IMG/VR virus record: IMGVR_UViG_2675903468_000002
Span: 1-42,574 of that record
DNA from: a virus
Taxonomy: Duplodnaviria > Heunggongvirae > Uroviricota > Caudoviricetes
Strand: one strand, 5' to 3'
DNA length: 42,574 nucleotides
Shown here piece by piece: positions 2,606 through 5,600 of the stretch; the stretch's first letter is position 1, and each line of letters opens with the position of its first letter. The translations under genes were made by a program, and so were the position numbers. The notes under the pieces are model-generated. The model was not told the origin of the DNA. It saw only the letters and a list, made by a program, of their open reading frames with translations, and searched no databases.

Positions 2606-5600
2606 TCAGCTGATACTGATACCTGCTGTGGATTTTTTCATCACCACAACCAGCAGATCGCTGATACTGGTTGTTGGTGTCCAGTTATTCGCTCCTGATG
2701 AAGATACGGTGAATGTCAGTGTCAGCGTCCCCTGTCCGGCAGGCATATCTATAACTGAGGAAAATACGCCCTGAGCATCCGTCGTGGACTGATTAAAAAT
2801 CTCCTGACCATTGCGGGTCACTCTTAACCGGCAGGTTGAATACCAGTATGACTGTTGGTTATTACTGTTGAAATTCTCATGCTTACCACCGCGGAATAAC
2901 ACTGGCGGTATCATGACCTGCCGGTCAAATTTCTGATCATCACTGATTCTTACCGTGATGGTGCCACTGGCATAACTGTTCGTGCGGGGGAAAGACTTGC
3001 TGACCGTTTTGACAATATCGCCTTCAATCTGATTGGCTGACAGTTTCCCCTTAATCTGACAGTTTTCATTAATCGTGACATTGTTGAGCGTCCCTGAATT
3101 TGCATTCACATTACCGCTGATATCCGCATTTTTAGCGGTCAGCTTTCCGTCTGGTGTCAGGGAAAATGCCGGCGGATTTCCACCGCTGGTAATGGTGGGA
3201 GCCGTCAGGCGTTTCAGGAACACGTCATTCATGAATATCTGGTTGCCCTGCGCCACAAACATCGGCGTTTCATTCCCGTTTGCCGGGTCAATAAACGCGA
3301 TACGGTTAGCGGCAACCAGAAACTGGCTCAGCTTGCCTTCCTCCGTGTCCTCCATGCTGAGGCCAATACCCGCGACATAATGTTTGCCGTCTTTGGTCTG
3401 CTCAATTTTGACGCCCCACATCGCATTCCATTTATCGTTAGCGTCCTTCCACTCTTTCGAAAACTCATCCAGTCTGCTGGCGTTATCCTCCGTCAGATCG
3501 ACTTTTTCCAGCAGCTCTTTACCGAGATGGGATTCGGTTATCTTGCCTTTGAAAAAATCCAGGTAACCTTCCGCATCATCGCTCGCCCGACCGACGGACT
3601 CCACGAATGCCGATTTGCCAACGGTGTTCACACTGCGGATATAAAAGTAATAATCATGGCCCGGTTTGATATTGATACTGGCGGCTATCCAGTACAGCGC
3701 CGTGCCAAGATAGCGGGCTGTGGTTTCTACCTGCCTGATATCGGTAATCCGCTTTTCCGAGAACCAGAACTCAAACTGTACCGTCGGGTCATAAACGGCA
3801 AGATGCGGCGTGGCGGTTATCTGAAAATAGCCCGGTGTCAGCTCAATCCGCGACGGCACTGCAGGTGCGGCAATCCGGAACGATACCGATGCCGGATCGC
3901 CCTGCTGCCCCCACGCATTTACCGCCCGGACTGTCAGCCTGTAGTTCCCCAGCGCCAGTTGCGTGAAGCGGTATGTGGTTTCCGCCGTCCGGGCCGTGCT
4001 GACCAGCCGCTCACTGCCGTCATCCGCTGCCACGGTCAGGCGAAGCAGGAAACTCACGCCCTTCACCACCTTCGGCGTGTCCCAGCGGGCCAGTACCTGA
4101 TACTCCCCGCTGTCTGCGGTGACTTCGGCAGTCAGGTGCTGCACCGCTGGCGGCGTGACACCATTCACCGTGCCGCTCTGGTCGCCGTCAAAGTGCGCCC
4201 CGTTATCCACGATGGCCTCTTTTTCCGGTACATGCTGCACGGCGGTGATGGCATACGTGCCGTCGTCGTTCTCACGGATACTCACGCAGCGGAACAGGCG
4301 CTGGCGCAACGTCGGCAGCTTCAGCCCCCATACGCTGTATTCAGCAACGCCGTCAGGAACACGGCTCACTTTCACCTTCACGCCGTCGGTGACGGACTGA
4401 ACCTCCACGCTGACCGGATTACCACTTCCGTCAACCAGGCTTATCAGCGTGGTACCGGAGGATGGCAGCGTGATTTCACGGTCGAGCGTCAGCGTCCGGG
4501 TCTGGCTGTTTACCGCCAGCACGCGTCCGCCGGTGCGGATACCGGCATAGTCATCATCGCAGATTTCAATGACATCGCCCGGTACATGGCGAAGCCCTTC
4601 GGCACCCACGCTGAAGTCCACGGTCTGCGTTTCCAGCAGTTCTGTTTTAATCAGCCACAGCCCGGCGCGGTGTGCCTGCCCCCGGCTGGTACAGCCAAAA
4701 GCATCCATCTTCGTGACGTTACGACCGTAACGGGCAATGGCCTGCGTGTCCTCCACAAGCTCTGTCGCCGTCTCCCAGCCGTTGTCCGGGTCAATCCAGT
4801 TCACCTCAACGGCATTATGGCGGTCCTTCAGGGCGCTGAAGCTGTAGCGGAACGGCGCACCATCATCCGGCATCACCACATTACTGCGGTTATAGGTCCA
4901 CACCTTATCCGACGGTCGGTCCTGCACGAACGTCAGCGTCTGCCCGTTCCATACCGGCATACAGCGCATCGCAGAGCAGAAATCACTGAGCACATCCCAC
5001 GCCTTGCGCTGTGTGGTCAGGTACGCATTACAGGTGATGCGCGGCTCCGTGCCGCCAAAACCGTCCGGCACCGACTGATCGCAATGCTGGCCGATGACAT
5101 ACAGCGCCCATTTGTCCACATCCGCCGCACCAAGACGTTTCCCCATGCCGTAGCGCGGATGGGTCAGCATATCCCACAGACACCAGGCCATGTTGTTGCT
5201 GTATGCTGGCTTAAACGTTCCGTCCCAGATACCGCTGTATTGCCGCGTCTGCGGGTTATAGTTCGACGGCACCTGCAGAATGCGCCCGCGCAGATGATAA
5301 TTACGGCTCACCTGCTGGCTGCCGAACTGCTCCGAATCCACCTGCACGCCGACCAGTGCCGTGTTCGGGTAGCACTGTTTCACATCGATGATTTCGGTGT
5401 ATGACGACCAGAGCGTTTTGTTCTGCAGCTGGTCTGTGGTGCTGTCCGGCGTCATCCTGCGCATCCGTATATTGAACGGGCGCGGCGGCAGGTTACCCAC
5501 CACCACCGAGGCCAGATACTGCGAGGTGGTTTTGCCCTTAATGGTGATGTCTTTTTCCGTCACCCAGCCACCATTACGCTGGATCTGAACCAGCAGGCGG

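Follow-up and report, generated by a model that had tools for sequence, protein, structure and literature searches.

The J gene of the lambda-like prophage analysed here encodes a protein that is very similar to those of phages lambda and 434 over most of its length, but its C-terminal receptor-binding domain is a different allele, identical in sequence to a domain that experiments and a deposited structure have characterised as a binder of the outer membrane porin OmpC. Because of that identity we assign OmpC instead of LamB as the predicted receptor of this J protein, and do so with high confidence. We consider it very probable that the whole is explained by a lambda/434-like J body with an exchanged, OmpC-binding domain of the A8 type (below) in a lambda-like siphovirus prophage.

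The J gene and its surroundings

The window (the complete 42,574-nucleotide stretch of DNA under analysis) contains the features listed in Table 1. Its J protein is 1132 aa long, exactly the length of lambda J (open reading frame translation compared with NC_001416 15505–18903), and the NCBIfam model NF049904 lambda_TipJ matches it from residue 1 to residue 1132 with 2345 bits against a cutoff of 1950. A protein identical to window J carries the Pfam domains FNIII-A_GpJ, Phage-tail_3, Ig_J, Ig_J_second, Phage_Tail_Tip and Ig_GpJ_C, and window J also matches the lambda J chain of PDB entry 8iyk over its full length. The series of domains expected of lambda gpJ/TipJ (hub, FNIII, shaft/fibre and C-terminal Ig-like) is present, and the gene order H-M-L-K-I-J-lom-stf that the lambda gpJ family requires is found in the window, where the tail module V, G, T, H, M, L, K, I, J and lom is complete and ordered as in lambda, with stf downstream. 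By every criterion tested its sequence places window J in the lambda gpJ/TipJ family. The exact protein was found in two assemblies only, GCA_001441345.1 and GCA_025823825.1, and the complete E. coli genomes closest to the whole window are 96–97% identical to it over about 85% of the query.

Downstream of J, the DNA of the lom region is 91–93% identical to its counterparts in phi330 and 434. The stf frame is free of stops, and its annotated product of 625 aa has phage_tail_N and Phage_fiber_2 domains; its first 394 aa are 88% identical to lambda orf-401 (tblastn). The receptor-binding end of this Stf falls beyond the window; the side fibres of Ur-lambda, like the A8 domain discussed below, bind OmpC (PMC11338833).

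Table 1. Positions of J, its parts and the other features discussed in the text
Feature	Coordinates	Strand	State or basis
stf (side tail fibre), open for at least 625 codons	1..1875	minus	runs off the window start (contig end)
lom, Ail/Lom/OmpX-family outer membrane protein, 199 aa	1940..2539	minus	NCBIfam and Pfam Ail_Lom matches
Terminator-like hairpin just 3′ of the J stop codon	2569..2588	minus	consensus scan only
J (gpJ/TipJ), central tail fibre and tail-tip gene	2606..6004	minus	intact ORF, 1132 aa
Predicted exchanged C-terminal segment of J, residues 966–1132 and stop: last straight-fibre turns and Ig-like receptor-binding domain, A8 (OmpC) type	2606..3106	minus	100% identity to 9wca_J
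Variable core of the cassette, codons ~986–1120	2645..3047	minus	blastn gap relative to 434; GC content
Part of J resembling lambda and 434, residues 1 to ~985 (hub and FNIII domains, alpha-helical shaft, most of the central straight fibre)	3048..6004	minus	DNA and protein identity
Phage-borne general porin, Lc/NmpC type, 369 aa	28651..29760	plus	NCBIfam OmpC subfamily, 527 bits
Porin 3′ flank, homologous to the DLP12 nmpC-quuD interval; candidate site of an IpeX-like small RNA	29761..29940	plus	DLP12 alignment
Q antiterminator, convergent with the porin gene	29941..30324	minus	Pfam Phage_antitermQ, E = 5.5e-52

The boundary between lambda-like and divergent sequence in J

The preliminary description of this DNA held that J is lambda-like except for its C-terminal region, and alignment of the two J proteins bears this out. 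Residues 1–984 are identical to lambda J at 958 of 984 positions (97.4%), but in residues 985–1132 only 63/153 are identical (41%), and 76/169 (45%) in residues 969–1132, the part of J that, with its stop codon, corresponds to positions 2606–3100. A C-terminus as conserved as the rest of the protein, named in advance as the result that would speak against the claim, is thus not what the alignment gave, as identity is 41–45% over the last ~150–165 residues. Before residue 965 window J and lambda J differ by just 22 substitutions, and from there on the differences cluster, the first of them being at residues 965, 974, 979 and 983–994; these coincide with the divergence point that the preliminary description had quoted as a stretch of 32 protein letters.

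At the DNA level, blastn identity is 95.1% to lambda and 95.6% to 434, and both alignments end at window position 3048 (J nucleotide 2957, codon ~986). The alignment with 434 covers window positions 3048–6100 and 1454–2644 and skips 2645–3047, so that identity to 434 resumes at position 2644, 38 nt before the J stop codon, and extends across lom to the first part of stf. Relative to 434, then, the variable core is about 400 nt long and has conserved sequence on both flanks. Its GC content is 47.9% compared with 57.7% in the remainder of J, a contrast that is far beyond chance. Several other phages align to window J solely up to nucleotide 2957 or 3020, and the occurrence of breakpoints common to several unrelated phages suggests that this is a recurrent exchange point. 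The sharp DNA breakpoint and the drop in GC content together indicate module exchange, and the presence of one domain, 98.6–100% identical between phages, on very different J bodies (below) points to such an exchange rather than to local divergence.

Identity of the C-terminal domain with A8 gpJ

Residues 966–1132 of window J are identical, at 167/167 positions, to the PDB chain “A8 gpJ 713” (9wca_J; entries 9wca/9wcb), which upstream of the identical segment is lambda sequence. A search of the PDB with K-12 OmpC revealed that entry 9wcb, besides its three A8 gpJ chains, has three that bear the name “Outer membrane porin C”. We looked for a publication describing 9wca/9wcb and found none, but from the chain's name and its sequence match we infer that it is the A8 chimera of Brödel et al. 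(2024), who fused the C-termini of natural gpJ variants to lambda gpJ and obtained particles that use OmpC, not LamB (PMC11338833). The A8 chimera particles deliver DNA to MG1655 and to lamB/ompC-deleted MG1655 that has been given OmpC variants on plasmids, and delivery was efficient with 21/23 OmpC variants by A8, a second chimera called 1A2, or both (PMC11338833). The GpJ A8 DNA printed in the supplement of the same paper matches the 3′ end of window J in 498/525 columns, a value that includes the OCR errors of the PDF. The printed 1A2 sequence gave only fragmentary tblastn matches to the 2G7b-type domain, with OCR frameshifts in the print; by eye it could be read as the 2G7b type, and we give that reading low weight.

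A8 gpJ and window J are thus alike in having the same residues 966–1132, with an OmpC receptor and LamB independence in the case of A8, and nearly the same body, and they differ in that A8 is an engineered joining of lambda J to a natural C-terminus, whereas window J is natural and has ~2.6% polymorphism in its body. In window J the exchange joint falls within the last turns of the straight fibre, where the A8 joint was also engineered. The preliminary description had proposed a swap of this C-terminus into lambda; A8 is that swap, already published with the exact sequence (PMC11338833), and it used OmpC.

Does a natural phage with this domain depend on OmpC? The domain of phi330 differs from that of window J at 2/148 residues (N1008S and S1009T; 98.6% identical), and phi330 (PV189401) gave no lysis of the Keio ompC deletion strain, a defect that was rescued by Plac-ompC (PMC12502783). 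Beyond the domain the two J proteins are much less similar, since the phi330 J body has only ~63% identity where it is aligned with window residues 1–984, a value in which the absent N-terminal ~120 residues are counted (the annotated phi330 J ORF is 1042 aa and lacks them). The preliminary description had supposed that the divergent C-terminus uses a different receptor, possibly a porin, and both the identity to the OmpC-binding A8 domain and the OmpC dependence of the near-identical phi330 support this.

Other characterised J proteins are more distant in this region. Lambda J (PDB 8iyk, 8xcj) resembles window J in length, in residues 1–984, in domain layout and presumably in triggering mechanism, but only 41% of its receptor-binding domain is identical, the loops have indels, and lambda binds LamB. 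The J body of phage 434 is 97.8% identical and its receptor is also OmpC (PMC11101478), but its receptor-binding domain is 43–44% identical to that of window J and so represents a different OmpC-binding allele. The alignment with J of OmpC-using lambdoid phages called for in the preliminary description thus gave two distinct results, 98.6% for the phi330 domain and ~43% for that of 434. A lambda-type, LamB-binding domain (41% identity and loop indels) and a 434-type, OmpC-binding domain (43–44% identity) were both ruled out for window J.

Phage 21 J has a domain 82% identical to that of window J (26 differing positions), with the same 13-residue loop and the same C-terminal tail, but its alpha-helical-shaft/straight-fibre segment is different and has a 28-residue insertion, and its native receptor is LamB; it can come to use OmpC by one substitution immediately ahead of the domain, I1025T (PMC11336670). 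Window J has the ancestral I-V at the equivalent position. Since a phage whose domain is 82% identical uses LamB, similarity of about 80% is insufficient to assign a receptor, and the assignment made here rests on identity. That phage 21 reaches OmpC by one mutation outside the domain indicates in addition that receptor choice in this domain family is labile.

Frequency of the domain alleles

The last 164 residues of window J were compared by tblastn with 50,697 phage records. The A8-type domain was present in 19 of these at ≥99% identity and in 25 more at 95–99%, and the carriers include many Stx1a- and Stx2a-converting phages as well as 2H10, Turner, Chlobot, PhiR30_1, PhiR70_1 and phi330; in the Stx1a-converting phages and these six named phages the C-terminal 164 aa are 98.2–100% identical to those of window J. 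The next-closest group, that of phage 21, is at 82–83%. The 443-nt domain DNA was found at ≥99% in 1,218 records, and at 95–99% in 274 more, from 5,426 complete E. coli genomes. The lambda-type domain, on the other hand, occurs in 21 phage records only, nearly all of which are lambda or its laboratory derivatives. Of the two the A8 allele is therefore the common one, and among natural lambda-like phages the OmpC-type alleles are common and lambda's own LamB-binding domain is a rare allele.

Proposed mechanism and alternative explanations

Lambda J consists of hub domains, two FNIII domains, an alpha-helical shaft, a beta-prism straight fibre and an Ig-like receptor-binding domain (PMC11101478), and the domain names used here for window J follow that description. 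In lambda, four bottom loops of the receptor-binding domain enter the extracellular face of the porin, the domain trimer spreads, the change climbs the fibre and the tip opens (PMC11101478). We propose that window J would likewise form, as a trimer, the tail tip and central fibre of a lambda-like siphovirus prophage, and that its last ~150 residues would be another allele of the Ig-like receptor-binding domain, gained by homologous recombination between conserved flanks; the upstream flank would be a 15-residue stretch at the end of the straight fibre and the downstream flank the extreme 3′ end of J together with lom. The A8-type domain would bind the trimeric general porin OmpC in place of the maltoporin LamB. 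By analogy with the lambda J-LamB pair, the three domains would push their bottom loops into the porin trimer from its extracellular side, the domain would spread at its bottom, a signal would pass up the straight fibre, the tail tip would open and the DNA would be ejected. Since the part of window J that precedes the domain is 97% identical to its lambda counterpart, we infer that the signalling steps are like those of lambda, with OmpC as the trigger. The prophage probably makes infectious particles.

Could the divergent domain nevertheless be a LamB binder like that of phage 21, its divergence being an adaptation to LamB variants? The 82% identity to the domain of a native LamB user is in keeping with this, but the identical A8 domain works in lamB-deleted cells and requires OmpC (PMC11338833), phi330, two residues apart, requires OmpC as well (PMC12502783), and a complex of A8 gpJ with OmpC has been deposited (PDB 9wcb), so we regard continued use of LamB as highly improbable. 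A broader specificity, in which the domain binds general porins (OmpC but also OmpK36, OmpF or the phage's own Lc-type porin) and OmpC is not the sole receptor, is unlikely but carries some weight: DNA delivery by A8 particles extends to a Klebsiella pneumoniae ST258 strain and other Enterobacteria (PMC11338833), and evolved phage 21 domains use LamB, OmpC and OmpF (PMC11336670). On the other hand, phi330 did not lyse an ompC single deletion strain that still has OmpF and LamB (PMC12502783), delivery by A8 and 1A2 depends on the OmpC variant, 2/23 of which were not used efficiently by either chimera (PMC11338833), and the phage porin is merely 61% identical to K-12 OmpC, with indels in its loop regions.

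The other two alternatives concern origin and present function rather than receptor. When lambda and phage 21 are evolved in the laboratory, mutations concentrate in the C-terminal region of J (PMC11336670), and the divergence might by the same token have arisen in place, by accelerated point mutation under host-range selection with no exchange of a module. This is extremely improbable in view of the single point from which the DNA cannot be aligned with lambda or 434, the return of the 434 alignment 38 nt before the stop codon, the GC shift of 10 points, the use of the same breakpoint in other phages, and the presence of the domain at ≥99% identity in ~1,200 E. coli genome records and in J proteins whose backbones are unrelated. 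It is also quite unlikely that J belongs to a defective prophage and that its domain no longer serves infection. In favour of this reading, the window is a contig end and only two assemblies have the exact J protein; against it, the head, tail, lysis, replication, repressor and integrase genes are all intact ORFs, and neither J nor stf has a frameshift. Our preferred explanation remains the acquisition, by module exchange, of an A8-type OmpC-binding domain by a lambda/434-like J.

The phage-borne porin gene and its relation to J

The window porin is 92.7% identical to Lc of phage PA-2 and 92.9% identical to the IS5-disrupted NmpC of phage 434. The gene adjoins Q convergently, as nmpC adjoins quuD in DLP12, and its 3′ flank is homologous: window positions 29700–29945, which take in 61 bases at the end of the porin gene, the flank in full and 5 bases of Q, have 89% column identity to the DLP12 nmpC 3′ region. 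The window thus resembles the DLP12 NmpC and PA-2 Lc systems both in its porin (~93% identical) and in the arrangement of its neighbours. The small RNA IpeX represses ompC and ompF. It is presumably encoded in DLP12 in the region downstream of nmpC, and Castillo-Keller is said to have located it in the nmpC 3′ region in 2006. We searched for IpeX in the porin 3′ flank with Rfam, where no family matched, and in the K-12 RefSeq annotation, where it is not listed. PA-2 uses OmpC, and work of the 1970s–80s found that PA-2 lysogens make Lc while OmpC declines.

The preliminary description suggested that the divergent J is linked to the phage-borne porin gene. An Lc/NmpC-like porin gene does lie beside Q, but the A8-type domain is usually found without one. 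All of the porin-carrying lambdoid phage records (36/36) have non-lambda J domains, namely 6 of the A8 type, 18 of the 434 type, 2 of the 2G7b type and 10 of the phi21 type. Viewed from the side of the domain, however, the porin gene is present in just 6/44 A8-type and 18/74 434-type records, and most A8-type phages have stx or nothing at the site where the window prophage has its porin gene. Clearly, with 38 of 44 A8-type records devoid of it, the A8-type domain does not need the porin gene. We rejected the association between porin gene and J type as evidence (Fisher p = 0.05), because the lambda-type control is made up of 21 near-clonal records that are not independent.

A functional link between the porin gene and J is nonetheless plausible. 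We suggest, tentatively and as a reading that is less likely than not, that the Q-adjacent Lc/NmpC porin and its 3′ flank (with a possible IpeX-like RNA repressing ompC and ompF) may have been co-selected with a porin-binding J as a receptor-replacement module. In this way the lysogen would have less OmpC, to which its own J binds, and would put in its place a porin that J fails to recognise.

Implications

The mosaic pattern of J, the allele, its receptor and a deposited complex with that receptor are all already known, and the finding is in this respect real but ordinary; the A8 allele is already in use as an engineering part. Its use here is in annotation and the prediction of host range: the prophage is predicted to adsorb irreversibly via OmpC and not LamB, and it follows as a prediction that ompC mutants would be resistant and that malT or lamB mutants would not. 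If receptor replacement by the porin gene and its flank is true, it would block superinfection and spare released virions from loss on sibling cells, and it would extend the observation made with PA-2 to a large class of E. coli prophages.

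Frequency of the J Receptor-Binding Domains

The LamB-binding J domain of lambda itself was found in only 21 records of the phage collection (50,697 phage records), nearly all of them lambda derivatives; in the separate set of 5,426 complete E. coli genomes, about 1,490 records hold a stretch with ≥95% DNA identity to the OmpC-binding A8-type domain carried by the window's J. "Campylobacter phage CJLB-4" (MW057783.1), labelled as a Campylobacter jejuni phage, has a J C-terminus that is 100% identical to that of lambda and lies at the same coordinates as in lambda; contamination with lambda or mislabelling of the record is the probable explanation. 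In phage D2 (OM475427.1, positions 1–1802) J is divided between two CDSs and includes ambiguous bases; its C-terminus mixes lambda-like stretches with stretches like those of phage 21 (phi21), so that either the gene is broken or the sequencing was faulty.

Other Genes of the Prophage

The remaining features are listed in the table below. Among the tail genes, the side tail fibre gene stf has an uninterrupted frame in the window, whereas that of laboratory lambda is frameshifted; over its first 394 aa the product shows 88% identity to lambda orf-401, and the receptor-binding end falls outside the window. With 1007 aa, the tape measure protein H exceeds its 853-aa lambda counterpart, and from this difference a tail longer than lambda's is predicted. 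The endolysin is of a different type from lambda R.

The end of the porin gene and its entire 3' flank (29700–29945) have 89% column identity to the nmpC-quuD intergenic region of prophage DLP12, the reported site of the IpeX small RNA; no Rfam family was found for this 3' flank. The SPFH/Band 7 protein gene is possibly an accessory or exclusion gene. The C4 and isrK matches, together with the antirepressor genes, have the appearance of an antirepressor control module of the P1/P7 immI kind, placed within a lambdoid prophage.

Features of the prophage outside gene J
Feature	Position	Strand	Remarks
stf side tail fibre gene	1-1875	-	at least 625 codons, open frame, truncated by contig end
Tape measure protein H	8388-11411	-	1007 aa
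Endolysin	23511-24077		GH108 plus PG_binding_3 type
191-aa ORF	24952-25527	-	adjoins lysis genes; weak TerB-domain match, E = 1.6e-6
DNA adenine methyltransferase-like gene	26749-27795	-	348 aa, between lysis genes and porin gene
Lc/NmpC-type porin gene with 3' flank	28651-29940	+	~93% identity to PA-2 Lc, a prophage porin
Rha/Ash-domain and ORF6N/KilAC antirepressor genes	34065-34937 and 35143-36003	-	adjoin C4/isrK matches
C4 antisense RNA and isrK matches	34674-34862	-	Rfam, 83.6 bits (C4), 67 bits (isrK)
SPFH/Band 7 (HflK/C-like) protein	39329-40156	+	275 aa, between integrase and repressor region
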